A stretch of 64,000 nucleotides of DNA from an uncultured delta proteobacterium (GTDB lineage Bacteria > Desulfobacterota > Binatia > Binatales > Binataceae): NCBI GenBank assembly GCA_963755705.1, contig CAVWKW010000001.1, positions 165,884-229,883 of the forward strand, written 5' to 3'. Positions 8,548 to 59,338 of the stretch are shown piece after piece. Made by a program: the position numbers and the translations under genes. Position 1 is the first letter of the stretch. Every line of letters begins with the position of its first letter. The notes below the pieces were generated by a model that saw nothing but the letters and a program-made list of their open reading frames with translations, was not told the DNA's origin and searched no databases.

Positions 8548-8559
8548 CCAAAGACTCCA

Positions 8560-10685: not shown

Positions 10686-10688
10686 TCG

Positions 10689-12278: not shown

Positions 12279-12293
12279 ACGGCGGGAACAGCC

Positions 12294-26581: not shown

Positions 26582-26584
26582 GCC

Positions 26585-31237: not shown

Positions 31238-31252
31238 TTAAATCAAGGAATT

Positions 31253-31348
31253 GGAGGAGGAAGGGGCCCGGTGGCCCCACCGGTCTTCAAAACCGGCCTG
31301 GCGGCTAATATTGTTGCCGGAGGGTTCGACTCCCTCCCCCCTCCGCCA
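31253..31348 (+). tRNA. selC: tRNA-Sec (selenocysteine, anticodon UCA)
   Basis: 8-bp acceptor stem GGAGGAGG/CCCCCTCC with one A-C mismatch. 6-bp D-stem GGGGCC/GGCCCC with 4-nt loop CGGT. Anticodon stem CCGGT/ACCGG with loop CTTCAAA (U33, anticodon TCA, A37). Long variable arm. T-arm GAGGG-TTCGACT-CCCTC. Discriminator G then CCA. The 8/6-bp architecture is diagnostic of bacterial tRNA-Sec. Confidence 0.8.
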
Positions 31349-33278: not shown

Positions 33279-33854
33279 ATGCCCCGGCTTCAGGACATCC
33301 TGATTGATCACCCGCGCATTTTACTGGTGGGAATAAATCCCAGCCCTCGGTCCGCATCTAGCGGCCATCATTTTGCCGGACCGGCCAATCCGTTCTGGCG
33401 CTTGATGCACGCGTCGGGGCTGGTGCCGATCGCGCTGACGCATGAAGAGGACGGCAGGCTCGCGGAGTTTGGATTTGCGATCACCAATGTATGTTCGCGC
33501 GCGACTCGTGCGGCGTCGGAGCTCAAGCGCGAAGAGCTGGATCGCGGCGAGCGCGTGCTGACGCGGAAGATTCGCAAGCTCGGGCCGCGCGTGGTTGCGT
33601 TCGTGGGGGTCAGCATCTACCGGCGCTACTTCGGTCCCTCGGCGGCTTCAGGAGCAGGCGTCAAGCCCGAGACGATCGCGGGGGCTCGGGTTTTCGCGCT
33701 GCCAAATCCAAGCGGCCTCAACGCCAGCTTTCCAGGCTTCAAGGACAAGCTGATTTGGTACGAAGCGCTGCGCGAATTTTCGGACGAGCTGGAAGCGCAA
33801 GCCGCGGCGGCGAAGATCAAGCGCGCGGCCGCAACACCATCTGGGTCTGCGTGA
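33279..33854 (+). CDS. mug: G/U mismatch-specific DNA glycosylase (Mug/TDG family)
   Basis: ILLVGINPSPRSASSGHHFAGPANPFWRL and GFAITNVCSRAT correspond to Mug motifs. Confidence 0.75.
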   Translation: MPRLQDILIDHPRILLVGINPSPRSASSGHHFAGPANPFWRLMHASGLVPIALTHEEDGRLAEFGFAITNVCSRATRAASELKREELDRGERVLTRKIRKLGPRVVAFVGVSIYRRYFGPSAASGAGVKPETIAGARVFALPNPSGLNASFPGFKDKLIWYEALREFSDELEAQAAAAKIKRAAATPSGSA

Positions 33855-34224
33855 CAATCGCGCACAGCTTGCCGCTTTCCAGAGTGATCCGCGTCTGCCA
33901 GACCATCGTGCTGTGTCCGCGATGAATCGGAGTGCACTCGCCGATCACCTTGTTTCCGACCGGAGCGGCCGCCAGGAAGTTCGTTTTCGATTCGAGCGTG
34001 GTGGTGCCCGCCCCCTTGGGCAGGTTGAGCATCGTCGCGCACGCGCCGAGCGTGTCCGCGAAGGCCATGATCGCGCCGCCGTGCAGAATGGCAGGAACGG
34101 TGCAGACCTCCGCGCGGACGGCCAGCTCCGCGGTCACGCGATCAGGCTCGGCGGCAAGAAAGCGGATCCCGAGCAGTTCCGCGAGCGGGATGTGCTGATC
34201 CTCGAGCATCTTGCGGTAGTCCAT
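33817..34224 (-). CDS. PaaI-family hotdog-fold thioesterase
   Basis: HGGAIMAFADTLGACA is a hotdog thioesterase signature. 135 aa. Confidence 0.7.
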   Translation of the reverse strand: MDYRKMLEDQHIPLAELLGIRFLAAEPDRVTAELAVRAEVCTVPAILHGGAIMAFADTLGACATMLNLPKGAGTTTLESKTNFLAAAPVGNKVIGECTPIHRGHSTMVWQTRITLESGKLCAIVTQTQMVLRPRA

Positions 34225-36984: not shown

Positions 36985-38094
36985 CTAGGAGGATTTTCGG
37001 GGCAAGCGTACGGTGAAACTGGTACCGGCGTCTTCGGTCGAGGTCACAGTGACCGTTCCATGGTGCGCGGCGACTATTTCGCTAACTATGAACAGACCTA
37101 GTCCGAGACTCGTATCGTTGTGAGCCGGATCGCCGCCGCGAACCAAGGGGTCGAAAATAGTCGGAAGCAGCTCGGGGGATATCGGCGAACCCTGGTTGTG
37201 CACTTCGAGCGATACCTGGTCGTTGTCGCTCCTGGCTGAGATTGTGACGGTTTGCCCGCTGCCGTGTTTGATCGCGTTGAGCAGAAGATTGGCGATCACC
37301 TGTTTGAAGCGGTCGATGTCCCAATTGCCCGCCAAATCGCCACTCGACTCGAAAACGATTGGGGAGCCCGGGTTGGTGGATTGGACTTCGCCGACAATTT
37401 CGCGAACGAGCGTTCCGAGATCCGTGGGTGCGGGGGTAATCGGCATCGGACTGCCGAGCCGGCCGCGCGCAAAATCGAGCAGGTCAGTAACCATGCCGGA
37501 TAACCGATGCGCGCTGCTGAGAATACGCGAGACCGATCGAGATTGCTGCTCACTCGATGCGTCCGGGGCCAGCGACGTCGCACTCAGGATAATAGCGTTC
37601 AGCGGGTTGCGTAGGTCGTGGCCCAAAATGCCAAGAAATCGATCGCGGTATTGCATTTCACGGGTTTTGTAATAGGACACCGCCGCCGCCACTTGGTCGT
37701 CGATCACTTGAGCAAACCTCGTGATCTCGTCCGCGCCATTGGTAAAACTGCTTGGGTCGGCGTTGCGCCATAAACGCAGGACGCAAGCGCGTAGCGCGAA
37801 ATACTCGGCCATTATCTGGAGAAGATCGAATCCCGACTCGATTCGAAGCTCGACATGAGCTGGAGTGGGATACTTTGCGGCATCCGTTGATGATTGGTCA
37901 TTCGGTCTGTCGCCACCCCTGCGGTCCGCTTCCGATGTCTCAACTGCGGTAGCGATTTGCCCAATGATAGAATTGGCATGATCGCGCAAAAGCCACTTGG
38001 GTAGCGAAACTTCCCCCGCGAGCTTTCTTGCAAAATCTTCCCACTCTCGAAGAATTTGCTCCGTATTAGCCCTTATGAATTCAGATAGATGCAT
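36985..38094 (-). CDS. Sensor histidine kinase (HisKA + HATPase_c)
   Basis: H-box HDLRNPLNAI. N/G boxes LLLNAIKHGSG and GLGLGLFIVSEIV. Start at MHLSEF (38094). Confidence 0.8.
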   Translation of the reverse strand: MHLSEFIRANTEQILREWEDFARKLAGEVSLPKWLLRDHANSIIGQIATAVETSEADRRGGDRPNDQSSTDAAKYPTPAHVELRIESGFDLLQIMAEYFALRACVLRLWRNADPSSFTNGADEITRFAQVIDDQVAAAVSYYKTREMQYRDRFLGILGHDLRNPLNAIILSATSLAPDASSEQQSRSVSRILSSAHRLSGMVTDLLDFARGRLGSPMPITPAPTDLGTLVREIVGEVQSTNPGSPIVFESSGDLAGNWDIDRFKQVIANLLLNAIKHGSGQTVTISARSDNDQVSLEVHNQGSPISPELLPTIFDPLVRGGDPAHNDTSLGLGLFIVSEIVAAHHGTVTVTSTEDAGTSFTVRLPRKSS

Positions 38095-38344
38095 TGCCTG
38101 GTCATGGTTATAGGAAGTAATGCCGCCTCGGGTTGAACGTTGCGGAGGGGCAATCGTCAATCCGGGGATGTTCTCGGCGATCGTGGCTCGCATTCAATAT
38201 TGCACGCCTGATTCCACACGGTTGTCGGGACTCGATGGCGCGGACTGTCGTTACCGCATTTGCGCCTTCCGGACTCTTCAAAGTGAACCCCCAGGTAACG
38301 TTTCATCGAGTGATATCATAAATTGGGGTCTGTCTGAAAAAGGA

Positions 38345-39711: not shown

Positions 39712-40869
39712 ATGCGACGGGAAATTTTCACCGAAGAGCATGAGCTGTTTCGCGCCCAGGTGCGCAGGTTTGTCGAAAAGGAGATCGAACCCAAAGTGGA
39801 GCAGTGGAATCGCGCCGGAATCAGCGACCGCGACTCATGGCGCAAGCTCGGCGCCGCGGGCTACCTGGGCGCGAATGCTCCGGCCGAGTTCGGGGGAGCC
39901 GGCGCCGATTTCCTCTACGACGCGATCGTGATCGAGGAGCTTGCGAGGGTGCGCGCCCACGGCCTCATGATGGGGCTGCATTCGGACATCTGCATGCCCT
40001 ACATCAACACCTACGGCAGCGCCGAACAGAAGCATCGCTATTTAACCGGCGCGATCAGCGGCGAGCTGATCCTTGCGATCGCGATGACCGAGCCGGGCAC
40101 CGGCTCCGACCTGGCCGCGGTCCGCACCACCGCGCGCCGCGACGGCGACAGCTACGTTATCAACGGCTCGAAGATCTTCATCTCGAACGGACAGCTCGCG
40201 GATCTGATGATCGTCGTGGCGAAGACCGATCCGAACGCGAACCCTCCGCATCGCGGAATCAGCCTCCTTCTGGTCGAGGGCAACGCACCCGGCTTCGTAC
40301 GCGGGCGCAAGCTCGACAAGCTTGGGCTGAAAGGCCAGGACACCAGCGAGCTGTTTTTCGAGGATTGCCGCGTTCCGATCCAGAACCTGCTCGGCAAAGA
40401 GGGGCAGGGATTCAAGATGCTGATGGAGAAGCTGCAGCAGGAACGACTGGTGGCCGCGATCGGCGCGGTCGAGAGCTCGCGCCGATGCCTCGACGACACG
40501 ATCGCGTACACCAAGGAGCGCCGCGCCTTCGGCCAGCCAATCTCGTCGTTCCAGAACACGCAGTTCCGGCTGGCCGAGATGGCGACCGAGGTGGAAGTCG
40601 GGCGCGTATTCGTCGATCGCCTGATGGCGGCGCACGTGCGCGGCGAGGAGCTGGTCACCGAGGTCAGCATGGCGAAGTGGTGGACGACGGACCTGCTGAA
40701 GCGCGTATCGAGCAGTTGCCTGCAACTCTTCGGCGGCTACGGCTTCATGATGGAGTATCCGGTAGCGACCGACTACGCCGACGCGGCGGTGCAATCGATC
40801 TACGCGGGCACCAACGAAATCATGAAGGTAATAATCGCCCGCCGCATGGGCCTGGATAATCGCAACTAG
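39712..40869 (+). CDS. Acyl-CoA dehydrogenase
   Basis: AAGGAG RBS. MRREIFTEEHELFR..., ILAIAMTEPGTGSDL, and C-terminal FGGYGFMMEYPV motifs. Confidence 0.85.
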   Translation: MRREIFTEEHELFRAQVRRFVEKEIEPKVEQWNRAGISDRDSWRKLGAAGYLGANAPAEFGGAGADFLYDAIVIEELARVRAHGLMMGLHSDICMPYINTYGSAEQKHRYLTGAISGELILAIAMTEPGTGSDLAAVRTTARRDGDSYVINGSKIFISNGQLADLMIVVAKTDPNANPPHRGISLLLVEGNAPGFVRGRKLDKLGLKGQDTSELFFEDCRVPIQNLLGKEGQGFKMLMEKLQQERLVAAIGAVESSRRCLDDTIAYTKERRAFGQPISSFQNTQFRLAEMATEVEVGRVFVDRLMAAHVRGEELVTEVSMAKWWTTDLLKRVSSSCLQLFGGYGFMMEYPVATDYADAAVQSIYAGTNEIMKVIIARRMGLDNRN

Positions 40870-40893
40870 CGCGAATCACAGCTGGCGTCTGAC

Positions 40894-41637
40894 GTGAAAC
40901 GCTTCATCGGGTGCATATTCTCGCTTCTCTGCATCGCCGCGATCTGTACGCCGCAATTGACGCCTTCATTCGCCGCCGAGCCCGCCGGGAGCCATTCGCG
41001 TGTGGTCCATCACGAGTCAGAGAACGGCGCTGCCGCGCTCACGTATCCTATCGACCTCGGGGAGGATTTTGTTTTTAGCGCAAATCTGACGCTGCCCAAA
41101 GTTCGCAATAATAGGGGGTGGTACTGTGTTTGGCTTATGGTCAGCGACTTAAAGAACACGACCCAGCATCCATCGATGCTACAAGTCGGGTTGATGCGCT
41201 GGGACCAGAGCAACTTTCAGGCACAGCCGTTCATCACAACGGAGGAATCGGCCCACGAGTTCAAGTTCAGAGCAATCCCGAGGAATCTATCCACTCACCA
41301 CAGGTTTTCAATAGCCGCTGATCATTCAACCCTAACCCTGGCAATGGACGGCAACGCGCTCATGTCCGCGCCACGCGTTGAGTTCTTCAAGGACGACTCG
41401 CGAATTTATTTGAAGATAGCAGCGGAGGTTTTTGCGGTCGGCGACACGGCGTCAGGATTGGTGAACAATGTCACACTCGGCCGAGGCGCCGCAAAAAAGG
41501 ACCCGCCGATTTCCAACGCGGCGTTCGAAGATCGCGGTCTCAAGTTTCTGTGCAAAGGCAACGGTCAATGGGAAGCGACGGGAGAATTCGATCCAAAAAT
41601 AGGCTTTGTGCAATATGTTCCTCCGGAGTGCGGTTAA
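40894..41637 (+). CDS. Secreted hypothetical protein (signal peptide MKRFIGCIFSLLCIAAICTP)
   Basis: Clear signal peptide. No known motifs. Locally lower GC than surroundings. Confidence 0.5.
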   Translation: MKRFIGCIFSLLCIAAICTPQLTPSFAAEPAGSHSRVVHHESENGAAALTYPIDLGEDFVFSANLTLPKVRNNRGWYCVWLMVSDLKNTTQHPSMLQVGLMRWDQSNFQAQPFITTEESAHEFKFRAIPRNLSTHHRFSIAADHSTLTLAMDGNALMSAPRVEFFKDDSRIYLKIAAEVFAVGDTASGLVNNVTLGRGAAKKDPPISNAAFEDRGLKFLCKGNGQWEATGEFDPKIGFVQYVPPECG

Positions 41638-41818
41638 AGGGATTGACCTTGGATCTCATTTCAAATCATCGATGGACGATCCGGGCGCCGCGAAACTCAA
41701 CGAGGAGGACTAGGGCGCGCGCATAGAGAACGCTGCGCAAAAGCCGCTTCGAGCGGTACAATCACGCCCGGATCGGTTTGCCACCATCCATTCGCGTGAA
41801 ACGCCAGAGGTTACAGCA

Positions 41819-43042
41819 GTGAACAAAAGTAATTCGCAGGATGAAAGCGGTTCGGCCTACTACCTTTCCCAGCCCCAAGCCGATCTCGATTTGGTATCAG
41901 TCGTCAGGGCCACGCCAAGCGGTGAGCTACTGCGCCGCTATTGGCATCCGATCGCGGTTGCATCGGAAGTCGGCGAGCTTCCGGTCGCGATGCGCGCGCT
42001 CGGCGAGGATCTGATTCTGTTCAAGACGCCAACGGGTGAATTTGGCCTCGTCTATCCGCGATGCTGTCATCGGGGCACCACTTTGTACTACGGGAAAGTT
42101 GAAGAACGCGGCATTCGATGTTGCTATCACGGATGGCTATTCAGCCCGGACGGCCGATGCCTCGATCAGCCCTGCGAACCGGGCGGCGGCGACAAGCGCG
42201 ACAACTATCGGCAGCCATGGTATCCGGTACGCGAACGTTACGGCCTCGTGTTCGCCTATCTCGGCCCATCGGATCGCATACCTATACTTCCCCGATATGA
42301 GGCGCTGGAGGTCTTACAGCCCGATGAATGGATCGAACCGGACGGCAGGAGCCTCGGATCAGGCGGCGATGTGATCGCGCCCTGCAACTGGTTTCAGCAT
42401 TGGGAAAACGTGATGGACCCTTATCACGTCGCGATCCTTCATTCGGCATTTAGTGGAATCCAGTTTATTCCCGAGATGGCTCAGATGCCCGATGTTTCCT
42501 TCGAGCCTTCGCCAATTGGCGTTACCAGCACGCAGATCAGAAACCTCGAGGGCAAAGTATTCCGGCGCGTCACCGAAGTGGCGATGCCGACGCTGCGCGT
42601 GGTTCCGAACCCGTGGGCGACGGGGTTCAATAGGCCCGTTGAATCGATTGGTTGGACGCTTCCTATCGACGACACGCACTACCGAATTTTCACTGCCGGC
42701 CGTGCCACGAAATCCGGACCTCTTTATTATCCGCCGAAAGGTCTCATGAGTGGGAATCGGCGCTGGCAGGACATGTCCGAAGAGGAGCGGCAGCGCAAGC
42801 CAGGCGATTGGGAGGCGCAAACCGGACAGGGAGCAATCACGTATCACTCCGAAGAGCATCTTGCGTCTTCAGACCGCGGTATCGCGATGCTGCGGCGGTT
42901 TTTTCGCAAACAGATCGAGACGGTGGCCGCCGGCGGCAACCCTGCAGGCACGATCTTCGAGGAAGGCGATGGACCAGTGAAATTCGCCGCCGGTAACTAT
43001 CTGGAAGAACCCGCCAACATGCCGTCGTCAACGGCCCGATAA
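41819..43042 (+). CDS. Rieske [2Fe-2S] non-heme iron oxygenase, alpha subunit-like
   Basis: Rieske ligands CCHRG...CCYHGW (CxH-x17-CxxH), followed by a catalytic domain with His/Asp-rich segments. Confidence 0.8.
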   Translation: MNKSNSQDESGSAYYLSQPQADLDLVSVVRATPSGELLRRYWHPIAVASEVGELPVAMRALGEDLILFKTPTGEFGLVYPRCCHRGTTLYYGKVEERGIRCCYHGWLFSPDGRCLDQPCEPGGGDKRDNYRQPWYPVRERYGLVFAYLGPSDRIPILPRYEALEVLQPDEWIEPDGRSLGSGGDVIAPCNWFQHWENVMDPYHVAILHSAFSGIQFIPEMAQMPDVSFEPSPIGVTSTQIRNLEGKVFRRVTEVAMPTLRVVPNPWATGFNRPVESIGWTLPIDDTHYRIFTAGRATKSGPLYYPPKGLMSGNRRWQDMSEEERQRKPGDWEAQTGQGAITYHSEEHLASSDRGIAMLRRFFRKQIETVAAGGNPAGTIFEEGDGPVKFAAGNYLEEPANMPSSTAR

Positions 43043-43075
43043 AAGAAAAGGCGGTCCGGCTGGACCGCCTTTTTT
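43041..43075. terminator. Bidirectional rho-independent terminator between convergent genes
   Basis: AAAAGAAAA-GGCGGTCC-ggct-GGACCGCC-TTTTTT. Confidence 0.7.
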
Positions 43076-43094: not shown

Positions 43095-44279
43095 TCAGCC
43101 GATTTCGCGGCCTACTACCGATACGAAGCTGACGCAGCGGCCCGGGGCGCCGCCGAGGTTGTGCGTAAGTCCGAGCTTGGGGTCGTTGATTTGGCGCTTG
43201 CCGGCTTCGCCGCGGAATTGGAGCCACATCTCGTACATCATGCGCAGGCCCGAGGCGCCGATCGGATGGCCGAATGACTTGAGGCCGCCGTCCGGATTCA
43301 CCGGGAGCTTGCCGTCGAGGTCGAAGTATCCGTCCATCACGTCCTGCCATGCGGTCCCGCGCCTGCTGAAGCCGAGATCCTCGTAGAGCACGAGCTCGGT
43401 CGGAGTAAAGCAGTCATGGACTTCGGCCATGCTGATCTGCGCGCGAGCGTCGGTGATTCCCGCTTGCGAGTACGCGTCTTTCGCCGAGGCGACGACTTCG
43501 CGGAAGGTCGTGAAGTCATAGTCCTGCGACAGCGGCCCCTCCGCCGGTCCCGCGACGAACGACAGCGCCTTGATGTAGATCGGATTCTTGCAGTACTTGT
43601 GCGCGTCTTCGGCGCGAACGATTATCGCCGCCGCCGAGCCGTCCGACACGCCAGAGCAATCCATGATCCCGAGCGGGTCGGCGATCTTGGGCGAGTTCTT
43701 GATCGTCTCGATCGGCACTTCTTTCTGGAACTGCGCCTTGGGATTTTTTGCGCCGTTCTTGTGATTCTTCCACGCGATACGCGAAAGGACGTCCTTGCCC
43801 TTGTCGGGATCGAGTCCGTACTTCTTGAAGTACGCGGGTGCGAGCAGCGAGAAGGACGCCGGCGCCGTCATGTTCCCGTCGGTGCCGTCGTTGGGCGGCG
43901 CGGACATCACAAGGCCCGAGTAGCCCGAGTCCTTGAGCTTCTCGACTCCTATCGCCATCACGATATCGAACGCACCCGACGCAACCGCGTAACACGCCTG
44001 GCGCATCGCTTCGGACCCGGTCGCGCACATGTTCTCGACCCGGGTAACCGGCTTGTACTGAATCTTGAGCGGCTCAGAGAGTGTCAGTCCCGAGATTCCC
44101 GAGCCCATCGTGCCGAGCCAGTAGGCGTCGATGTCGTCCGGGTTCACTCCAGCCGAGGCGTAGGCCTCATAGGCGGCTTCGCAGAGCAAATCTTCGGGTC
44201 CTTTGTCCCAATGCTCGCCGAACTTGGTGCATCCCATTCCGATGATCGCGACGCGATCCTTGATTCCTCTGCTTGCCAT
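43095..44279 (-). CDS. Thiolase-like protein (acetoacetyl-CoA thiolase / SCP-x-type)
   Basis: VAIIGMGCTKFGE, NMCATGSEAM (active-site Cys) and the C-terminal thiolase region. Confidence 0.8.
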   Translation of the reverse strand: MASRGIKDRVAIIGMGCTKFGEHWDKGPEDLLCEAAYEAYASAGVNPDDIDAYWLGTMGSGISGLTLSEPLKIQYKPVTRVENMCATGSEAMRQACYAVASGAFDIVMAIGVEKLKDSGYSGLVMSAPPNDGTDGNMTAPASFSLLAPAYFKKYGLDPDKGKDVLSRIAWKNHKNGAKNPKAQFQKEVPIETIKNSPKIADPLGIMDCSGVSDGSAAAIIVRAEDAHKYCKNPIYIKALSFVAGPAEGPLSQDYDFTTFREVVASAKDAYSQAGITDARAQISMAEVHDCFTPTELVLYEDLGFSRRGTAWQDVMDGYFDLDGKLPVNPDGGLKSFGHPIGASGLRMMYEMWLQFRGEAGKRQINDPKLGLTHNLGGAPGRCVSFVSVVGREIG

Positions 44280-44297
44280 GAACCGTTCTCCTCGCGC

Positions 44298-45713
44298 CTA
44301 GCGCTTAGGCCGTGCCTTCCAGAAATAGTTATGAACGCCGTCGGCAGTAAACAGGCGGCGGAATGTCATTTCCACTTCGTCACCGATCGCAACTTTCTCG
44401 GGCTCGCAATCCGTCATCTCGCACAGAAAGCGTCCGCCGCCCTCGAAGTCTATCACAACATTGACCGTGGGGGGATTGAGCGAGAATGCCAGCCGGTCGA
44501 TTGCGTAGGTCGCGATTTTTGCGGTGCGATCCGCAAACGCGTACGGCTCCATCTTGTCGAACGCGCGGCACTTGAAGCATACCCGCTGGGGCGGAAGCTG
44601 CGGAGTTCCGCACGCAGTGCACTTCGAGCCGACGAAGCCAAACTTCCACTGCTGCGACCGGAGCATCGGAGGACCGGCGGGACGTTCCGGATCAGGACGC
44701 CGGGGAGGTTCCGTCGGCAGGATCTCGCGCCACTTGAGGTAGCTGCCGTAGGTCACGTCACCCTTGGATTCGATCTGCATCCCGACCGACCGGATCGGTT
44801 TGAAGCTCGCGATCGCCGGCGTCGCGCGCAGCAGGATCGCGTCGGCGCCGTCGGCGACGGAGGCGACCAGTACGCGCTCGCCCGGCTTAAGAGAAGGCAG
44901 CACGCCCGCGAGCATCAACCCCGGATGCGCGGCGCCGGTCTGACCGACGGTAAGCGCGAAGTTGTCGCCGAGCTTCGGCGGGTCGAGTTTCATCCCGCGG
45001 ATAATCTCGTCAGCCGCGCGCGGATTAGGCGCGTCGAGGATGACTTTGGTCAGATCGCCGGGTGCGACCTTCGCCTTGGCCAGAACGTCGGCAATCGCTT
45101 TACCCAAAAGGGGAGAGTACGCCTGCGTTAGCGTGAAGCGCTCTTCCCACGAATGCCCAAAGCGCTCGCCGGGTGCGCGCCAGGTGTCCATGAACTCGCG
45201 GGTGAGCGATGCGGTGGCTTCGATTTCCGCGATGACGTGTTCGGTCCCGAGCACGAAGGCTACCGCACCGTCGCCATTTTGCTGCTCGGCCTTGCCCTCG
45301 GGTGCGCCCAGGCGCGCGTCGCCGATCGCGACGATTGCGTTGGTCTTCGAGCCGGACGCGGCGTCCGCACCCTGCAGAATCGCGGAGATTCCCGCGCGGA
45401 CTGAGCCGGTCAGATCGACCGCGCGGATATTGGGCGGCATCCGGGTGGCGGCGGCCACAATCGCGGCATTGAGCTTTTCACCATAAGGCGGCGTCGTGGT
45501 TGCGAAGATCAGTGCTCCGATCGGCGCGGACGCCGCAGGAGCCGCCTTCAGCGCGTCGCGCACCGCTTCGACCGCCATCGAAGCCGAATCCTCATCGAAG
45601 CTGGCGACAGAGCGCTCGCCCTTTGAAGCGGCAACTCCCAGCATCTGCGCAATCGCGGCGCGTTTGAGCCGCCGATAGGGGATATATGAGCCGTATGAAA
45701 CAATTCCAGCCAT
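44298..45713 (-). CDS. HMG-CoA synthase-like condensing enzyme fused to a C-terminal DUF35 (Zn-ribbon + OB-fold) domain
   Basis: N-terminus MAGIVSYGSYIPYRRLKRAAIA matches the archaeal-type HMG-CoA synthase start. The C-terminal ~120 aa (KCTACGTPQLPPQRVCFKCRAF...VVIDFEGGGRF...) is a DUF35/ChsH2-like rubredoxin ribbon + OB fold. Confidence 0.7.
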   Translation of the reverse strand: MAGIVSYGSYIPYRRLKRAAIAQMLGVAASKGERSVASFDEDSASMAVEAVRDALKAAPAASAPIGALIFATTTPPYGEKLNAAIVAAATRMPPNIRAVDLTGSVRAGISAILQGADAASGSKTNAIVAIGDARLGAPEGKAEQQNGDGAVAFVLGTEHVIAEIEATASLTREFMDTWRAPGERFGHSWEERFTLTQAYSPLLGKAIADVLAKAKVAPGDLTKVILDAPNPRAADEIIRGMKLDPPKLGDNFALTVGQTGAAHPGLMLAGVLPSLKPGERVLVASVADGADAILLRATPAIASFKPIRSVGMQIESKGDVTYGSYLKWREILPTEPPRRPDPERPAGPPMLRSQQWKFGFVGSKCTACGTPQLPPQRVCFKCRAFDKMEPYAFADRTAKIATYAIDRLAFSLNPPTVNVVIDFEGGGRFLCEMTDCEPEKVAIGDEVEMTFRRLFTADGVHNYFWKARPKR

Positions 45714-45982
45714 GGGCGCATTAAAGGCCGTGCCGATTCATCCGTCAACCCGAGGCTTCATTACGTCGGCGCGGGGTGCGCACGCGCCGCTTACCGAAGG
45801 CGGCCGAAATCCGCGCGTTTGTTGAGGTTCCGGCGGTTTCGTGAATTGGCCTCTATCCTCACGCGCAGAAAAAACCTATCATTAAGGCATAACGCTCGGA
45901 TGCCTTCCTGTACTCAGACCCGGGATGGTCCCGGGGTCTCTGTTCGATTGCTTCCCGGCATTTACTGATGGAGGGGCACTTA

Positions 45983-46345
45983 ATGCCCAGCAAATTGTAT
46001 GTAGGCAACCTTGCCTACTCGGTTACTAGCCACGATCTGGAAGACCTGTTCGCGCAGGCCGGCGCGGTTCAGAGCGCTGCGGTCATCACGGACAAGTTCT
46101 CGGGTCAGTCAAAGGGATTCGGATTCGTCGAGATGTCGACGCCGGAGGAAGCTGCAAAGGCAATCCAGCTCCTGAACGAGACCGAGCTCAAGGGACGCAA
46201 CATCCGCGTCAACGAAGCCAAGCCGCGTGAATCCGGCTTTGGCGGAGGCGGCGGTGGTGGAGGCGGCGGACAGCGTCGTGGTGGTGGCGGCGGCGGTGGT
46301 GGAGGCGGAGAGCGCCGAGGTGGCGGCGGCGGAAACCGCTGGTAA
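45983..46345 (+). CDS. RRM-type RNA-binding protein with Gly/Arg-rich C-terminal tail
   Basis: RNP2 LYVGNL and RNP1 KGFGFVEM, followed by GGGGGGGGGQRRGGGGGGGGGGERRGGGGG. Confidence 0.8.
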   Translation: MPSKLYVGNLAYSVTSHDLEDLFAQAGAVQSAAVITDKFSGQSKGFGFVEMSTPEEAAKAIQLLNETELKGRNIRVNEAKPRESGFGGGGGGGGGGQRRGGGGGGGGGGERRGGGGGNRW

Positions 46346-46393: not shown

Positions 46394-46478
46394 GAGAAAG
46401 GGGACGCGGACGCGGTGTTTTTAGCCGCATGAAATGGTTCCGCGCGTCCACGTTCCGTTCATCCATGGAGGTTACGAC

Positions 46479-46760
46479 GTGCCCAGAGTCTATGTTGGTA
46501 ATCTGGCCGAATCGGTTACGCGCGATGATTTGACCACGCTGTTTTCGCGCGTTGGCAAAGTCGGCGGAGCGTTGGTTATCACCGACAAGCTTTCGGGCGT
46601 GTCGCGCGGGTTTGGTTTCGTCGAGATGATCGAGGTTGACGACGCGATCAATGCGGCGCATTTCTTTCATGACACCGAACTCTCCGGCAGAAAGCTGCAA
46701 GTCGATCAATATCGGCCCAAAGACGAACCTGCCACCAAGGGTTCCCGCAAGCGTCGTTAA
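46479..46760 (+). CDS. Second RRM-type RNA-binding protein (GTG start; no Gly tail)
   Basis: RNP2 VYVGNL and RNP1 RGFGFVEM. GGAGG RBS 7 nt before GTG at 46479. Confidence 0.7.
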   Translation: MPRVYVGNLAESVTRDDLTTLFSRVGKVGGALVITDKLSGVSRGFGFVEMIEVDDAINAAHFFHDTELSGRKLQVDQYRPKDEPATKGSRKRR

Positions 46761-47515: not shown

Positions 47516-49846
47516 CTAAATGCGGGTCGGCGCCGCGAGCGAGCGCGCATTGCTTCCTGCAGCCGCGACGCGAGCGAGTACGTCGTCAAGGTCCCAGAAC
47601 AGTTGCGCCAAACGCCGCAGCGACGCGATCTCTGACATTAGCTGAAGCCGCATCGGCGTTTGCCATTGGGCAATTTGCGCAAAGCCGTTCGCGCCGACGC
47701 CTTGGGTGAAGTCGTTCAAGGGAGCCTCGATGTCGTCGGCCACGCGGTTGCCCGAAATCGCACGCGCGGCGCGGCTGCTGAGGCAGTTCGGTCCGTCAAA
47801 ATGGTCGCGCCATGATTCCAGCCGCGCGCGCATCGCAGCTAATAGCCGGTCGCGCGCAGCTTCGGTTTGTGCCGATAGCGGGGGCAGCGGCGCTTGGATG
47901 CGCTCTCTGCTGATCGCGCTCAGGCGATGCGCGATGCGGCGCAGGGTGCCCGAAGCGTTGACAGTAGCGTCGGGATCGATTCGGCTCGAACGCCCCTCGA
48001 TCCGCGCATCGTCTGCGATCCCGAGCAGGTCTGCGAGCTCGCGCGTAATACCCTCGCTGGTCTCGTGGAGTTTCCTTACCGATAACGAGTCCGCACCGCC
48101 CGGCATCAGGTCGAGCGTGGCGTGCAGAATCTTCCGCAGCCGCGGCAGCAGCGAGTCGCCTGCATATTCCGGCCAGATCAGGATGAACACCGCGGTCAGC
48201 ACCAGCATCGCGAGGATAATTCCCCATACCCGATAGAGCGGCGTCGTGATGGCTTCGCTCGGGCTGATTCCTGCCCATGTGAATACGAATGCGCCGCCCA
48301 TCTGGCGGCCTGCATATGCGAATTGTCCGTTGCCGAGTCCAAGGTAAGCGGCCGTGAACAACCCGAGGAACGCGACCATCATGTAGATCGGAAGGGTCTC
48401 GAAGTTGGGCGTCACGATAATAATTGCGAGCAGCCCGATCGCGCCGCCCAGCGCATTGCCCAGTAGCCGCAACAGCATTTTACCGAGCGTCGCGCCGTAG
48501 GTGGGCAATCCGGCGATGATTACCGTGGTGATAATCACCGACAGGTCGGCGCGCTGGGTCGTGATGCCGATGACGAACCCAATCACGATCGCGAGCGCCA
48601 CCTTGAGCGAGTAGCGGACCAGCGCCGGGTCGCGTCCATGGCGCCGCGTCGGGCCGGTGACCTCATTGGATAGCCATGGTTCTTCCAGACCGTGGATCAG
48701 CAGTTCCCCGATCTGCCGCAGTCCGTTTGCGAAAGAACCCAGGTTGGCGGCCTCGACCGTGGTTGACTGTGCGAGCAAGGCCGGGCGAACTATCGCGATC
48801 CGCGCCTCGAGCGCGGCGATTGCGGGCTGCACGGCGCCGACGGCGATCGCGGTGCGGTTCTCACCATAGGATATTTCGCCACGCGCGCGTTCGGCCGCGC
48901 GCTCGGCAAGTGCCGCGTCGAGCGCACGAACCAGCACTTCCACTTCGGGCCGCACCATCGTGCGCGCAACCCGCGGCAGCGGATCGATCGCGGCGATAAT
49001 CAGGTTATCGACCGCGATATGCAGCCGCTCGGCCAGTGTGATCGCGCCCAGCAGCACGGCCCGCCGCTCGGGCGTCGCGCCCTCCTGCGCCGCGCGTTCG
49101 AGGAGCGCCAGATGCGCGGGTATGTCAGAGAGGAATCCCGGAATTCGCACGCCCGAGTCTCCCGGCGGCGCGAAAAAGGCGGCCGCCGCTACGTCGAGCC
49201 GCGCGCGCGTGCGGCTAAGGTTATGCCCCAGCATCGCGATCAGCTCCGCGTCGGCAGGGTTCGGCCACAGCACCATATCGAATAGCGAGATCAGGATAAC
49301 GCTGATGACCACGCCGCCGAACGTCGAAGCCGCTTCGACTCCGAAACCCTGCGGGTCGAATACCACCAGATAGAACGAGGTCAGAAAGGTTATCTCGACG
49401 ATCACCCACGCATATGGAAGCCGAAACGCTGACAGGACGTAGCGAAAAACGAACGCGGCCACAAACAGGAACGGAAGCATCAGCCACGGCGTCTCCGAGA
49501 GCTGCCCCGCCAGTGGCACCGACAGCGCCAGCATCGCACCGGTAACGACGACGAAGCGCAGCCCCTTAAACGGTGTGATCCTCACGCCGCCTGCTGACGC
49601 GACGGTCCACAACACGTATGGCCCGAGGAGCGCATCGACATGCGCCGCCGCCATCAGGCCGAATCCGATTGCGCAGATTATCCCGGTGCGAAAGGCCGAG
49701 ACGGTGCGCCGAGGATGCGGCTCGAGATCGAGCGCGAGGGCGCCGAATAGCGAGTCCACGCCATCCGTGATTCGACGCACACCGGCGGCCGCGAGTCCTT
49801 TTAGTCGCCGGCGTGAGCGTAGTTCGATCCCCGGCGCGGCCGCCAT
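47516..49846 (-). CDS. FUSC-family (AaeB/YccS-like) efflux transporter
   Basis: 776 aa with two separate hydrophobic multi-TM regions, the FUSC architecture. Operon with HlyD and DUF1656-like genes. Confidence 0.75.
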   Translation of the reverse strand: MAAAPGIELRSRRRLKGLAAAGVRRITDGVDSLFGALALDLEPHPRRTVSAFRTGIICAIGFGLMAAAHVDALLGPYVLWTVASAGGVRITPFKGLRFVVVTGAMLALSVPLAGQLSETPWLMLPFLFVAAFVFRYVLSAFRLPYAWVIVEITFLTSFYLVVFDPQGFGVEAASTFGGVVISVILISLFDMVLWPNPADAELIAMLGHNLSRTRARLDVAAAAFFAPPGDSGVRIPGFLSDIPAHLALLERAAQEGATPERRAVLLGAITLAERLHIAVDNLIIAAIDPLPRVARTMVRPEVEVLVRALDAALAERAAERARGEISYGENRTAIAVGAVQPAIAALEARIAIVRPALLAQSTTVEAANLGSFANGLRQIGELLIHGLEEPWLSNEVTGPTRRHGRDPALVRYSLKVALAIVIGFVIGITTQRADLSVIITTVIIAGLPTYGATLGKMLLRLLGNALGGAIGLLAIIIVTPNFETLPIYMMVAFLGLFTAAYLGLGNGQFAYAGRQMGGAFVFTWAGISPSEAITTPLYRVWGIILAMLVLTAVFILIWPEYAGDSLLPRLRKILHATLDLMPGGADSLSVRKLHETSEGITRELADLLGIADDARIEGRSSRIDPDATVNASGTLRRIAHRLSAISRERIQAPLPPLSAQTEAARDRLLAAMRARLESWRDHFDGPNCLSSRAARAISGNRVADDIEAPLNDFTQGVGANGFAQIAQWQTPMRLQLMSEIASLRRLAQLFWDLDDVLARVAAAGSNARSLAAPTRI

Positions 49847-49850
49847 CGGA

Positions 49851-50900
49851 CTAGCGGAAACCCTGAATCGTCACGACCGCGGTCTGACCAGTGCGCAGCG
49901 GAAATTCCGGATTGCCGGGGTCGAGTGTGATCCGCACCGGGAAGCGCTGCGACAAACGAACCCAATTGAGCGTCGGCTCGACTTGAGGAAGCCCTTCAAC
50001 GCTGGCTCCGTTTTGCTGGTACAGCGCCCATCCGACGCCCTGCACGGTTCCTCGAAACGGATGATCGGGATAGCTGAGCAGATAGATCTGCGCGGTCATT
50101 CCGGGGCGGATATTGCCGAGAAAATTCTCGCGAAAATTCGCGACCACGTACCAGACCCGGTTATCGATCAGATTCAGCACGTCCCTGCCCTCGTTGGCGT
50201 ACTGTCCGACTGCGATATTGAGATTGGTGACGTAACCGTCGAACGGGGCGCTCACGTAGCAATAGTTAACATTCAGGCGTGCGTTGGTGACGTCGGCCTC
50301 GGCCTGCTTGCGGCGCGCGTTGATATCGCCGTACTGGCCAAGCTCGCTTTGTGCCTGGCTGACGGTCGCACGCGAATTTTCCACCGCGGCTTCCGCCGCA
50401 CGCAGCTTGCTGCGCGCATCGAAGACGTCGTTGGCGGTGACGTAATGCTTGGCAAGCAGCGGCTCGATGCGATGCAGATACTGGCGCGCGTATGCCAGGT
50501 CGGCCTCGCGGCGCTTCTGCTCGGAGCCTGCGGCGCGAATCGCGTCGTCGAGCCCGCTTATCTGCAGGTTGGTCAGTTGCAGCTTGGCAATGAGCGAATC
50601 GAGTGTTGCCTGGTATGGTCGCGGATCGACGATGAACAGCATATCGCCCTTGTGGACGTGCTGGTTGTCGACGATTGGGAGCTTGATTATGGGCCCGCTG
50701 ACGTGCGGCGCGACGCCGATTAGATTGGCGCGGACGTAGGCGTCGTCGGTGCGCGGATAGATGTAATAGAGCCGCGTCACCAGCAGGATCGCGACGATCG
50801 CGGCCACGATAATCGTGAGGCTGAGCAATCTTCCGATCGCCTTCAGCGCTGGATTATCCGCCGCTACTTCGTTTCCAGGAGCCACTGCGCCGCCCTTCAC
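49851..50900 (-). CDS. HlyD-family membrane-fusion/periplasmic adaptor protein (AaeA/EmrA-like)
   Basis: N-terminal TM anchor, coiled-coil segment, then beta-barrel region (GTVQGVGWALYQ...). Confidence 0.85.
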   Translation of the reverse strand: MKGGAVAPGNEVAADNPALKAIGRLLSLTIIVAAIVAILLVTRLYYIYPRTDDAYVRANLIGVAPHVSGPIIKLPIVDNQHVHKGDMLFIVDPRPYQATLDSLIAKLQLTNLQISGLDDAIRAAGSEQKRREADLAYARQYLHRIEPLLAKHYVTANDVFDARSKLRAAEAAVENSRATVSQAQSELGQYGDINARRKQAEADVTNARLNVNYCYVSAPFDGYVTNLNIAVGQYANEGRDVLNLIDNRVWYVVANFRENFLGNIRPGMTAQIYLLSYPDHPFRGTVQGVGWALYQQNGASVEGLPQVEPTLNWVRLSQRFPVRITLDPGNPEFPLRTGQTAVVTIQGFR

Positions 50901-51208
50901 ACCCGGTTAAAAAAGATTATCCAGAAGATGCATCCGAGCAGAATCGCCAGGCTCGCGTAAACCGCCGGCAGCGGCCACATATAGCGCTCGAGCCCGGAAG
51001 CGGCGAAGACCGGCCGCAGCAAAGCGGTGAGCGCCGCACCCACGATCGCGGCGACGAGCCAGCTCGGGAAATTTGCGCCCGCGATATTGACGATTGGATC
51101 GCATCCCGGCGCCGCGCACAGCGCGAATACCGCGATCCCCAGCCGCAGCGGGGTCGATGGTGCCCGATGAATCATGCCGGAAGATTCTACGCGTCGGATC
51201 GCGCGCAA
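50897..51208 (-). CDS. DUF1656-like small membrane protein (AaeX-like)
   Basis: Position upstream of HlyD/FUSC. The hydrophobic C-terminus LAILLGCIFWIIFFNRV resembles AaeX. Confidence 0.4.
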   Translation of the reverse strand: MRAIRRVESSGMIHRAPSTPLRLGIAVFALCAAPGCDPIVNIAGANFPSWLVAAIVGAALTALLRPVFAASGLERYMWPLPAVYASLAILLGCIFWIIFFNRV

Positions 51209-51433
51209 GCATCATCCTGGGGCGAGGAAAATTTTCTTCGATCGGCGCGATTTCGGAGCGCAGCCGGGTTAGGCTTGTGCCGGCCGCGGCCCGGATGAAC
51301 CGGACCGACGGACTTGGCAAGCACCATCTTGGGGGCCTTTATGCACCTGAAAACGATCACAAACTGCAACCCTCGCACGGTCGCCCGTAAGCGGCGCAAA
51401 CTGCGGCGTGCGGGAATTCCGAAGCGCGCGGTG

Positions 51434-52882
51434 ATGCTGATTCTTGCCGCCTCGATCGCGGGATGCGCCAGCTACGCCGAGCGGCCCGAGATCACGCCTG
51501 ATCTGTACTCGCCGGCCGCGGCCGATCAGCAGTGGAGTCCGGTCGCGCAACAGCAGCCGCAGTATCACGTGGCCGCGGTGACGCAGGAGATTGCGCAGGC
51601 AGCCTCTCAGGATCATTCGACGGTGACCGGATCGCACTATGACCTGCCGCGGCTGATCGATCTGGCGCTGCGGCTAAATCCGAGCACGCGCCAGTCGTGG
51701 CAAGCGGCGCGGTCGGCGGCCGCGTCTTATGGAATCGCTCAGGCGCCTTATTATCCGCGGGTTGGCTTTGAGACTGACGCCGGCTACAACCGCCTGCTGT
51801 TTCAGGTCGTTCCCGGACCTGCGGTAATCAAGCAATGGTCCGTCTCGCCGATGGGAGAGTTGACCTATACCCTGCTGGATTTCGGCCGGCGCAGTGCGGA
51901 CTCCGAATTGGCGCGCCAGGAACTCGCGGCCGCGAACTTTGGCTTTAATCGAACGATGCAGACCGTAGTGTACCAGGTACAGAGCAACTACTACTCGCTG
52001 GCCGCCGCGCAGGCTGCCGTGCAAGCCGCGACCGAGAACGTCGATCTCGCGCGCACCGACCTGGAAGCGGTCTCCCGCCGCGTAAACCTGGGACTCGCGA
52101 CCGAGCCCGCGCTGCTGCTCGCGCGCGAGACTGAGGCGCAGGCCGAGTTCCAGCTCGAAAGCGCGCACACTCTAGTGAACGATTCGCGCGCGGGACTCGC
52201 GGTCGCGGTCGGAGTGGCGGCCGATGAGCCGCTCGAGATTCAGAGCCTCGACAATCAGCCGGTGCCGAAGACGCTCGGCAAGGAAGTCCAGCAGTTGATC
52301 ACTGAGGCGGTTCGCGAGCGTCCCGACCTGGAGGCCGAAGCGGCGAAGTATCGCGCCAGCGAAGCCGCGGTGAAGCGCTCGCATGCCGAATGGTTTCCAG
52401 TGTTGACGGCGGACGCCAACTATGGCGAGCAGGCGTGGTGGTACACGTTTTCGAACTCGAACACGATCAAGAGTGCGTCGCCGCAATACGAGGCGTTGCT
52501 CACGCTGCGCTGGGACATCTTTACCGGCTTCAGCCGTCTCGACGACGATCGCCGCACAGAGGCCAATCGCAAAGCCGAGCGCGAAAGCGTGAAGTCGCTC
52601 GAAATCGAAACCATCGCGGAAGTATGGCGTTCGTACTACGACTTTCAGACCGCGGTGAAGAAATATCAGTTCGCGCAGGCGCTGCTCGCCGCCGCGCAGG
52701 AGTCATACAACGACAACCTCGATACCTATCGGCAGGGGCTCAGCACGATCGTCGAGCTTTTGACCGCCGACACCGCGCTCGCGAACGCGCGCCTGACGAT
52801 GGTCCAATCCACGGCCGAGCTACTGACCTCATCCGCGACGGTCGCATACGCGGTAGGCGCGGTGGATATGCCCAGGAGATGA
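51434..52882 (+). CDS. Outer-membrane efflux lipoprotein (NodT/TolC family)
   Basis: Lipobox LAASIAGC. Paired coiled-coil/beta-barrel repeats typical of TolC-like outer membrane factors. An alternative earlier start at 51341 is possible. Confidence 0.8.
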   Translation: MLILAASIAGCASYAERPEITPDLYSPAAADQQWSPVAQQQPQYHVAAVTQEIAQAASQDHSTVTGSHYDLPRLIDLALRLNPSTRQSWQAARSAAASYGIAQAPYYPRVGFETDAGYNRLLFQVVPGPAVIKQWSVSPMGELTYTLLDFGRRSADSELARQELAAANFGFNRTMQTVVYQVQSNYYSLAAAQAAVQAATENVDLARTDLEAVSRRVNLGLATEPALLLARETEAQAEFQLESAHTLVNDSRAGLAVAVGVAADEPLEIQSLDNQPVPKTLGKEVQQLITEAVRERPDLEAEAAKYRASEAAVKRSHAEWFPVLTADANYGEQAWWYTFSNSNTIKSASPQYEALLTLRWDIFTGFSRLDDDRRTEANRKAERESVKSLEIETIAEVWRSYYDFQTAVKKYQFAQALLAAAQESYNDNLDTYRQGLSTIVELLTADTALANARLTMVQSTAELLTSSATVAYAVGAVDMPRR

Positions 52883-58633: not shown

Positions 58634-59324
58634 TCAGTCGTCGCGTGAGAACGCCGAAGCCATCGCCATGAAGCGCTCGTGGCCAACGGCGATGAACACA
58701 CCCTCGGCCTCGGCGGTCAGCTTGCCTTCGCATGAGACGGTCCCGAGCGTGAAAATCTTGCGTCCTTCGACTCGGTCAACCCGCGCGTCGAACACCAGCT
58801 CCTTGAGCAGGGGGGTCGGACGCCGATAGCGCACGGTGAGCGTGCCGGTCATGCCGGGATTCCCGGTCAGCGACTGCGCCATCCCGAGCACCTCGTCGAA
58901 CGCGGCGGCCAGATAACCGCCGTGGACGTGGCCGGGCGGGCCTTCGTATGCGACGCCGAAAGTCGCGCGGCCCTCGACCCGATCGCCAACTACCGCGAGC
59001 CGAATTGGCGGCGCCAGCGGATTCGCCATCCCGATAAGTGGACTGTGATCGAAAAATACGTGCGTGTCGCCTGCGTTGGCGGCTTCCGCCCATCCTTCGT
59101 ACACCCGCGTAGTTGGATATTTCGCCAGGCGATCGGCATATTTCTCCAGCGCGTCGGCGGCGGTGCGCAGGTCCTCTTCGGGCGCGGCGACCTGCACCAG
59201 GTGATCGATCACGCGGCGCATCGCGTTCGCGATCCGCTGCGCTTGGGCGCGCCGGCCGGTCGCGGGGACCTGCGACTGAGACCATATGGTTTCGAAATCG
59301 AAATTGTACGGCTTTTCATTCATG
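58634..59324 (-). CDS. PaaI-family thioesterase (hotdog fold)
   Basis: GHVHGGYLAAAFDEVLGMAQ. Start at MASSMNEKPYNF; upstream part of the track ORF is antisense noise. Confidence 0.7.
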
Positions 59325-59338
59325 GATGACGCCATCGG

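Follow-up and report, generated by a model that had tools for sequence, protein, structure and literature searches.

What can a protein that resembles archaeal 3-hydroxy-3-methylglutaryl-coenzyme A (HMG-CoA) synthase do in a bacterium, when it is fused to a DUF35 module and followed by a thiolase? The question is raised by positions 43095-45713 of a 64-kb window (the whole stretch of DNA that was analyzed, namely 64,000 nucleotides of contig CAVWKW010000001.1 from an uncultured member of the Binataceae), which are filled exactly by two neighboring minus-strand open reading frames (ORFs). The initial annotation of this DNA had read them as an archaeal-style module of thiolase and HMG-CoA synthase (HMGS), with the channeling known from such complexes, and had placed it in an acyl-CoA catabolic route. 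We consider it probable that the two genes form an operon whose products make up a heteromeric 3-ketoacyl-CoA thiolase with a degradative role, in which the HMGS-like protein is a non-catalytic pseudo-HMGS::DUF35 subunit.

Domain architecture of the gene pair

The elements of the locus are as follows, with the evidence for each in brackets (aa, amino acids):

43046-43073, minus strand: 12-bp GC-rich hairpin with A and T runs on its flanks (terminator scan)
43095-44279, minus strand: gene for the catalytic subunit, an SCP2/archaeal-type thiolase of 394 aa (NF004810, PDB matches, motifs)
44280-44297, minus strand: intercistronic spacer of 18 nt with a GAGGAG ribosome-binding site (sequence reading)
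44298-45713, minus strand: gene for the putative non-catalytic subunit, a fusion of pseudo-HMG-CoA-synthase and DUF35 of 471 aa (ORF, domains, PDB alignments, structure model)
44298-44648, minus strand: DUF35 module, aa 356-471 plus stop, with a Zn ribbon and then an OB fold (PF12172, PF01796, 6esq_E match)
44649-44723, minus strand: Pro-rich linker between both domains, aa 331-355, EILPTEPPRRPDPERPAGPP (predicted to be ordered)
44724-45713, minus strand: HMGS/PhlA-like thiolase-fold domain, aa 1-330 (residue mapping to 6esq_I)

The translation of the 471-aa ORF opens MAGIVSYGSYIPYRRL. Residues 1-332 are matched by two NCBIfam models of archaeal HMG-CoA synthase, PRK04262 (E=3e-55) and TIGR00748 (E=1e-36), both with sub-cutoff scores (187.5 bits vs. 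244 and 126.5 bits vs. 353, respectively), and the C-terminal part passes the Pfam gathering scores of zf-ChsH2 (PF12172, residues 360-386, E=2e-7) and OB_ChsH2_C (PF01796, residues 395-452, E=8e-10). The top sequence matches in the PDB are the PhlA-type proteins 9skh_A and 5m3k_A and the archaeal HMGS 6esq_I, and residues 353-467 align to the archaeal DUF35 subunit 6esq_E (46 bits). For an AlphaFold model of the whole chain (pLDDT 94.5, pTM 0.94), Foldseek placed PhlA (9skh, 5mg5) and the archaeal HMGS 6et9_I (TM 0.91 on the target, root-mean-square deviation 1.9 Å) at the top; MucA (9vbo) is also among the structural and PDB matches. Residues 331-360, which span the linker, have pLDDT values of 88-96 in the model, and E335, P336, R339 and P340 are invariant among the closer relatives. 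Because the linker is ordered and the pTM is high, the pseudo-synthase and DUF35 domains are predicted to stand in a fixed mutual arrangement. The second protein is composed of Thiolase_N and Thiolase_C_1 domains and scores 621 bits against NCBIfam NF004810 (cutoff 403); its best PDB match is 6esq_A, the thiolase of the archaeal complex (213 bits), followed by SCP2-thiolases, BbsB and PhlC. Domain, PDB and fold searches hence bear out the architecture that had been proposed, i.e., an HMGS-like protein with a C-terminal DUF35, then a thiolase.

The short spacer with its GAGGAG ribosome-binding site and the 3' hairpin lead us to treat the fusion and thiolase genes as a bicistron. The hairpin sits in the 52-nt gap between the thiolase gene and a convergent Rieske oxygenase gene (see below), and probably is a bidirectional terminator that closes the bicistron. 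A promoter scan found no sigma-70-like site upstream of the fusion gene, a result that carries no information in this phylum.

Loss of the synthase tetrad and retention of the thiolase motifs

The catalytic tetrad was mapped via a HMMER alignment to 6esq_I, in a numbering that reproduces the residues E82, C114, H238 and N270 mutated by Liao et al. (2026, Nat Commun; PMC12960953). All four are replaced in the window protein, by T73, V105, D227 and Q258, respectively. The loss is common to the family: a search of 1.84 billion cluster representatives retrieved 3,592 related clusters (614 at E<=1e-30), the best 150 of which are nearly all full-length fusions of ~470 aa with 33-57% identity to the query, and among 134 aligned fused proteins the Glu was found in none (T, A or S stand at its position), the Cys in none (L, V, P, T, A and others) and the His in a single one. 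An alternative Cys two residues downstream of the old Cys position occurs in ~12 of the 134 sequences and is absent from the window protein. The four Cys of the rubredoxin-like Zn ribbon (CxxC...CxxC, C365, C368, C379 and C382) are ~93% conserved in the same alignment and invariant in one of 44 sequences, and ~20 further residues are conserved across the alignments of the fused family. Judged by its sequence, the HMGS-like domain is a pseudoenzyme with a destroyed synthase active site, which overturns its earlier reading as an enzyme. As all four catalytic residues of the synthase are replaced, the channeling from thiolase to synthase that the initial annotation had envisaged cannot happen.

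The thiolase keeps its catalytic motifs, namely the nucleophile Cys85, His288-Asp-Cys-Phe291 (HDCF) and Gly337-His-Pro (GHP), which are invariant in 68-69 of 69 orthologues, and the protein has 68 invariant columns in total. Since the tetrad is lost family-wide and the thiolase motifs are kept, all catalysis must reside in the thiolase, which would work as sole catalyst with Cys85 as nucleophile, the His and Cys of HDCF and the His of GHP. The fused family would be a clear and widespread case of a pseudoenzyme that is kept as the obligatory partner of an active enzyme.

These residues bear directly on the reading that the fold alone would invite, in which a genuine HMG-CoA synthase with a fused DUF35 channels acetoacetyl-CoA to HMG-CoA for the mevalonate pathway. 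The best models of the N-terminal domain are indeed archaeal HMGS families, its fold is closest to 6et9_I and 6esq_I, the thiolase is closest to the archaeal 6esq_A, and homologues are labeled as hydroxymethylglutaryl-CoA synthase by JGI. However, the tetrad is missing here and throughout the family, the NCBIfam scores remain below their cutoffs, and neither tetrad mutants of the archaeal complex nor the fused complex of Pseudomonas fluorescens make HMG-CoA (PMC12960953). Pfam annotation of ~50 ORFs of the 64-kb window gave no HMG-CoA reductase, no GHMP/mevalonate kinase and no diphosphomevalonate decarboxylase, in line with the earlier view that the module does not serve plain isoprenoid synthesis. 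Given the missing nucleophile, the mevalonate reading is effectively refuted. The kinship with the archaeal thiolase/HMGS/DUF35 complex is nevertheless evident in three homologous modules (thiolase 213 bits, HMGS fold TM 0.91, DUF35 46 bits) and in the same thiolase motifs (Cys nucleophile, HDxF, GHx), and the 471-aa protein would be an inactivated descendant of the archaeal synthase and DUF35, fused into one chain. The differences are that the synthase is active there and dead here, so that no two-step channeling is possible, that DUF35 is fused here and a separate subunit of 130 aa there, and that the 64 kb around the window pair hold no mevalonate genes. Thousands of such proteins are labeled 'hydroxymethylglutaryl-CoA synthase' in public data and cannot be synthases, hence it is an error to use these labels as markers of the mevalonate pathway in Binatia and other uncultured phyla.

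A non-catalytic HMGS-like subunit is also found in the Friedel-Crafts C-acyltransferases PhlACB (P. protegens, 5M3K/5MG5) and MucABC (Streptococcus macacae, 9VBO), which share the thiolase/HMGS-like/DUF35 composition, and the pair could accordingly transfer acetyl from acetyl-CoA to a small-molecule acceptor in secondary metabolism. This would suit the ranking of PhlA-type proteins (9skh, 5m3k/5mg5) and MucA (9vbo) among the best matches, and their HMGS-like subunit lacks the tetrad as well. In PhlC and MucB, however, the His of HDxF is lost and residues that bind the acceptor have been gained, DUF35 is a separate subunit, and these enzymes use small-molecule acceptors and are encoded within biosynthetic gene clusters of the PKS or NRPS-PKS type (PMC12960953), whereas HDCF is intact and invariant in the window thiolase, DUF35 is fused, and Pfam annotation found no polyketide synthase (PKS), nonribosomal peptide synthetase (NRPS) or other secondary-metabolite genes in the 64-kb window. 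PhlC is matched with only 117 bits and the archaeal thiolase with 213 bits, and the fused complex from P. fluorescens acts as a thiolase, unlike PpATase and SmaATase (PMC12960953). An acyltransferase of this type is therefore very improbable.

Another way to account for the dead active site is that the pseudo-synthase domain gained a new catalytic or ligand-binding function, such as a second thioester-active site or a pocket that senses acyl chains or CoA. Several invariant or near-invariant charged residues set the fused family apart (R134, which is Ala in archaeal HMGS, D148, R106 and R179), and a non-condensing activity was speculated upon by Ibero et al. for a homologue in an estrogen degradation (edc) cluster (PMC7793797). 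Against this stand the lack of a conserved nucleophile, with L, V, P, T or A at the old Cys position, the fact that most invariant residues are common to true HMGS and so are probably structural, and the closest solved relatives PhlA and MucA, which have no demonstrated catalysis. We rate such a gain of function as highly improbable.

The nearest experimental precedent comes from a survey of 1,030 bacterial loci at which genes for HMGS, ACAT and DUF35 lie together, 1,001 of which have no secondary-metabolite context (Liao et al., 2026; PMC12960953). In the fused HMGS-DUF35/ACAT complex of P. fluorescens, E-C-H-N is absent and the thiolase keeps Cys, HDxF and GHx; the complex forms neither HMG-CoA nor acetoacetyl-CoA from acetyl-CoA, cleaves acetoacetyl-CoA thiolytically, and loses its activity upon the H294Y exchange (PMC12960953). 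Going by the published description, the window pair resembles this complex in several points: both have a one-chain HMGS-like and DUF35 protein beside an ACAT-type thiolase, both have lost the tetrad and kept Cys, HDxF and GHx, and neither has a PKS/NRPS context. The pair is a typical member of this recently described kind, and there is no new principle at the locus. Liao et al. leave the physiological role open and call the fused complex an 'evolutionary intermediate' (PMC12960953), whereas the context data given below suggest beta-oxidation of bulky or branched acyl-CoAs.

By analogy with the archaeal, PhlACB and MucABC complexes, we infer that both proteins form a physical complex, in which the Zn-ribbon/OB module of DUF35 would clamp the thiolase to the pseudo-synthase, while the pseudo-synthase would keep the thiolase soluble and help to form its CoA-binding site. 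Indirect support for such a complex comes from the adjacency and the fusions of the genes. MucB, the thiolase subunit of MucABC, is insoluble and inactive alone (PMC12960953). The complex would cleave 3-ketoacyl-CoA with CoA, i.e., perform the last step of the beta-oxidation cycle, and cleavage of acetoacetyl-CoA has been proven for the homologue from P. fluorescens (PMC12960953). Catabolic C-C cleavage of bulky CoA esters by an SCP2-type thiolase fold with a Zn-ribbon/OB DUF35 is also known from BbsAB (7PXP) and Ltp2-ChsH2/Sal-Shy (6OK1), and BbsB likewise uses HDxF. These systems, however, have no HMGS-like domain, and their DUF35 stands alone (BbsA) or on a MaoC hydratase (ChsH2/Shy). The Ltp2/Sal aldolases have no catalytic Cys, whereas the window thiolase keeps the invariant Cys85, and its match to Ltp2 (6ok1, 103 bits) is far below that to the archaeal thiolase; against the BbsB model NF053628 it scores 148 bits (cutoff 750), and bbs genes are absent from the window.

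Conservation and genomic context of the pair

Relatives of the fusion protein were found in at least 570 species by a profile search of genome contigs with a 10-sequence alignment, using one genome per species, and the best 80 of these species hits were used for locus comparisons (L numbers denote loci). The 80 loci come from Binataceae/Binatia, Myxococcota, Nitrospirales (Nitrospirota), Thermoanaerobaculia and Holophagales (Acidobacteriota), Methylomirabilia, Sumerlaeota, Chloroflexota, Gammaproteobacteria (Porticoccaceae, Cand. Multivorans), Burkholderiales, Actinomycetota and Bacillota (Desulfotruncus, Oceanobacillus, Syntrophothermus); they include no Pseudomonas genome, and one metagenome-assembled genome of the Pseudomonadales (L082). 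A contig of GCA_049792075.1 matches the window at 99.995% identity, and the closest homologues of the window are labeled Candidatus Binataceae. In 69 of the 80 loci, the thiolase gene lies 3' of the fusion gene on the same strand, with a gap of 10-125 bp. The neighboring genes were surveyed by tblastn and by de novo clustering of neighboring ORFs, by which the fusion and the thiolase turned out to be the only universally conserved genes around the pair. No universal third partner emerged from the clustering, the other clusters being scattered beta-oxidation genes or lineage synteny, such as Rho, HemN, RdgB and a binding protein.

Identity to the window thiolase is 65-98% (median 78%; 65-80% between phyla), while that of the fused partner is 43-97% (43-55% between phyla), so that the evolutionary rates of both subunits differ greatly, being low for the thiolase and high for the fused partner (loci L008-L087). 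This contrast is as expected for a catalyst, the thiolase, and a scaffold, the fusion protein.

Conservation also bears on the 'intermediate' view, according to which the pair is an evolutionary leftover that has lost its primary function and has no dedicated physiological role yet. It was proposed by Liao et al. for the 1,001 of 1,030 loci without biosynthetic context (PMC12960953), and unrelated housekeeping neighbors in many Binataceae genomes would agree with it. Yet purifying selection is strong, with a thiolase that remains 65-80% identical between phyla and retains its 68 invariant columns; at least 570 species preserve both genes in this order, invariance extends to the Zn-ribbon Cys and ~20 scaffold residues, and several lineages embed the pair in beta-oxidation operons or fuse a short-chain dehydrogenase/reductase (SDR) or SCP2 to it. 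As conservation is this strong, a functionless relic is disfavored, and we regard it as quite unlikely.

Wherever the surroundings of the pair are informative, they point to beta-oxidation. In Oceanobacillus senegalensis, a single strand encodes an acyl-CoA dehydrogenase (ACAD), an enoyl-CoA hydratase (ECH), two further ACADs, an SDR, the fusion, the thiolase and a CoA ligase, in this order, and comparable beta-oxidation gene sets surround the pair in Actinomycetota, Desulfotruncus and Burkholderiales. Among cultured bacteria, Rhodococcus megaplasmids carry the pair, with a thiolase of 65% identity, in beta-oxidation clusters, one of which codes for a ring-hydroxylating dioxygenase as well as for a CoA ligase. 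In Porticoccaceae and related bacteria, a type I Baeyer-Villiger monooxygenase (BVMO; FxGxxxHxxxW) is encoded directly upstream on the same strand (L033, L034, L052, L053, L063, L064, L069 and L071), which points to a route via ketones and esters that feeds the thiolase in these marine hydrocarbon-associated Gammaproteobacteria. As the neighbors of the pair in other lineages repeatedly include oxygenases of several types (P450, BVMO, ring-hydroxylating dioxygenase), there may be a loose oxygenase/beta-oxidation theme around it.

A paralogous pair is found in the estrogen (edc) cluster on plasmid p3 of Novosphingobium sp. ES2-1 (fusion 35% and thiolase 46% identical), where it is flanked by ACAD, SDR and crotonase genes; here the tetrad positions are occupied by T/L/S/F, the Zn ribbon retains its Cys, and HDCF is present in the thiolase. 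The same fused architecture and gene order are seen in the edc genes EGO55_13555 and EGO55_13550 of Novosphingobium tardaugens, of which the first, an 'HMG-CoA synthase', was given no step in estrogen degradation beside its thiolase neighbor and was suspected not to condense (Ibero et al., 2020; PMC7793797). In contrast to the window pair, these belong to a paralogous subfamily inside a steroid pathway with EdcC, extradiol dioxygenases, the P450 EdcA, Ltp/ChsH2-like genes and FadD3, none of which is present in the window. The actinobacterial estrogen aed cluster was considered as a further example and set aside, as it uses FadA5- and Ltp2-type enzymes of another family.

Other relatives are extended by further domains. 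A 722-aa fusion combines HMGS-like, DUF35 and two SCP2 domains, while a 911-aa fusion combines HMGS-like, DUF35, SDR and SCP2 domains; its SDR part is closest to the (3R)-hydroxyacyl-CoA dehydrogenases of peroxisomal MFE-2 (2et6 with 454 bits, then 1gz6 and 1zbq). The 911-aa type is common, with 485 metagenomic hits (P0206; loci L088-L167), and is part of a conserved metagenomic operon that encodes an SDR-SCP2 protein, the four-domain fusion, the thiolase and an ACAD resembling long-chain acyl-CoA dehydrogenase (LCAD), in this order. This clade has, at no fewer than 35 of 80 loci, an orthologue of the window's LCAD-like ACAD (52-55% identity) directly 3' of the thiolase. A hydratase-2 domain is absent from the larger fusions, and no description of the four-domain protein was found in the literature searched.

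Fused and adjacent SDRs could also hint at the opposite direction, with a condensing thiolase on a scaffold that recruits ketoacyl-CoA reductase and further enzymes for reverse beta-oxidation, ACP-independent fatty-acid synthesis or polyhydroxyalkanoate synthesis. A precedent exists in Sulfolobus acidocaldarius, where a complex for the synthesis of fatty acids is nucleated by a KT/DUF35 pair and also includes an SDR reductase and a MaoC dehydratase (bioRxiv 10.1101/2024.07.05.601840), which shows that DUF35 can recruit beta-oxidation-type enzymes; moreover, an SDR is fused to or encoded beside the pseudo-HMGS-DUF35 protein in several lineages, and a PhaC gene lies ~6 kb from the pair in one related locus. 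However, the recurrent partner is a FAD-dependent, LCAD-type acyl-CoA dehydrogenase and not an enoyl-CoA reductase that uses NADPH, the usual context consists of CoA ligases and catabolic clusters (estrogen, aromatic), and no product of condensation was detectable with the P. fluorescens complex, which did cleave acetoacetyl-CoA (PMC12960953). A condensing role is thus unlikely, and the degradative direction is the one we infer for the window pair. The link to acyl-CoA catabolism that the initial annotation had drawn is most likely right, given the beta-oxidation contexts in other lineages.

The recurrence of LCAD-like ACAD, MFE-2-type dehydrogenase, SCP2, CoA ligases, crotonases and steroid or aromatic clusters as partners leads us to a tentative hypothesis, to which we give clearly less than an even chance, namely that the substrates of the degradative thiolase are long, methyl-branched or otherwise bulky acyl-CoAs. 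This gives a testable hypothesis for the 'orphan' loci. Peroxisomal branched-chain and bile-acid beta-oxidation employs an SCPx thiolase-SCP2, MFE-2 and a branched-chain oxidase. In composition, and by analogy of composition only, the peroxisomal set and mitochondrial LCAD resemble what is seen in sister clades, which join the pair and its SCP2-type thiolase to an MFE-2-type dehydrogenase, SCP2 and an LCAD-like ACAD; for the pseudo-HMGS/DUF35 subunit we know of no eukaryotic counterpart. It is conceivable, if rather doubtful, that the pair is central to a widespread equivalent of this peroxisomal route in bacteria (LCAD-like ACAD, MFE-2-type dehydrogenase, SCP2 carriers, SCP2-type thiolase), in which the dead synthase is obligatory and completes the CoA/acyl site for bulky or 2-methyl-branched substrates. 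Candidate substrates would then be isoprenoid acids, fragments of hopanoids or steroids, and the side chains of alkyl-aromatics. If true, this would provide a role for ~1,000 'orphan' bacterial HMGS/ACAT/DUF35 loci and explain the unassigned 'HMG-CoA synthase' of the estrogen-degradation clusters.

Four observations weigh against a degradative thiolase with a purely scaffolding partner and a bulky substrate. The invariant charged residues of the pseudo-synthase (R15, D40-E41-D42, R134 and E143) could mark a ligand site instead of an interface. The substrate class is deduced from other lineages and from paralogous subfamilies, in which the thiolase is 46-50% identical. In most Binataceae genomes the pair stands alone, among unrelated neighbors such as SmpB, Mla, GNAT and RRM genes. 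Lastly, adjacency of the ACAD gene is limited to the closest relatives of the window and a few distant lineages.

Flanking genes and other features of the window

Three genes converge on the 3' end of the thiolase gene:

39712-40869, plus strand: LCAD-like acyl-CoA dehydrogenase of 385 aa (Pfam ACAD N/M/C domains)
40894-41637, plus strand: secreted hypothetical protein of 247 aa with a signal peptide and no Pfam match
41819-43042, plus strand: Rieske oxygenase (phthalate-dioxygenase family)

A Rieske oxygenase and an acyl-CoA dehydrogenase do therefore flank the pair as annotated, on the opposite strand and in convergent orientation, but only the dehydrogenase withstands comparison as a functional partner. 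Its best PDB matches are the Geobacillus ACAD 2pg0 (465 bits) and human long-chain ACAD 8w0t (371 bits), and orthologues with 52-97% identity recur beside the pair (L008 97%, L006/L007 87%, Oceanobacillus 54%, Desulfotruncus 53%, Rhodococcus DK17 pDK3 52%), so that the LCAD-like ACAD probably is a functional partner of the pair. No SDR or SCP2 gene is present near the pair in the window. The Rieske protein (PDB match 7fhr, 149 bits) is a phthalate-family oxygenase, a family that acts on free aromatic acids. Neither its gene nor that of the 247-aa protein gave a tblastn match in any of the 80 loci, and both lie in a variable slot between thiolase and ACAD (40871-43041), in which different oxygenases are swapped at the same position. 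Locus L008 is syntenic over 21 kb (85-92% nucleotide identity, 89-91% in the blocks adjoining the slot; fusion protein 97%), but ~1 kb with a 98-aa Cys-rich ORF replaces the Rieske and 247-aa genes there, while L006/L007 (fusion protein 85%) have a P450 in this slot. Their absence from the 80 loci and the variable slot in the syntenic relative rule out the Rieske oxygenase and the 247-aa protein as conserved partners. The otherwise syntenic L008 also lacks a 1.4-kb stretch that holds a histidine kinase gene (HisKA/HATPase_c, 36985-38193), which makes a second small indel in the neighborhood.

On the other side, two genes for RRM-domain RNA-binding proteins (45968-46345 and 46434-46760) are divergent from the fusion gene, the first encoding a long Gly/Arg-rich tail. 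Several relatives in the Binataceae likewise have an RRM gene beside the pair, upstream of it in L008-L010 and downstream in L017-L023 and L040.

The remainder of the window holds the remnant or core of an integrated conjugative or mobilizable element at 25061-31348, where local GC is higher (0.63-0.65):

25061-26581: TrwB-type coupling protein
26585-29344: TrwC relaxase-helicase
30059-31237: tyrosine integrase
31253-31348: tRNA-SeC gene, immediately beside the integrase and the element

An IS1-like transposase ORF is located at the left end of the window (1155-2099). A membrane cluster related to complex I and Mrp (7594-15211) encodes NADHdh, two Proton_antipo_M proteins, a subunit in which the 30-kDa and 49-kDa parts are fused and which bears the signature of NiFe-hydrogenase large subunits, and the 20-kDa subunit. 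In its make-up, the cluster resembles a group-4 membrane-bound [NiFe]-hydrogenase or a related complex for energy conversion. At 16923-20380, a gene for a HEAT-repeat protein precedes one for a bacterial dynamin-like GTPase of 821 aa (Dynamin_N). Two genes encode 4HBT-fold thioesterases (33817-34224 and 58634-60115), one of which is the C-terminal domain of a 493-aa protein otherwise without a Pfam match. Finally, an AaeAB-like efflux set (47516-52882) comprises a FUSC-family inner-membrane protein of 776 aa, a membrane-fusion protein, a small DUF1656/Ytca protein and an OEP outer-membrane factor; efflux systems of this kind are usually tied to the export of aromatic carboxylic acids.

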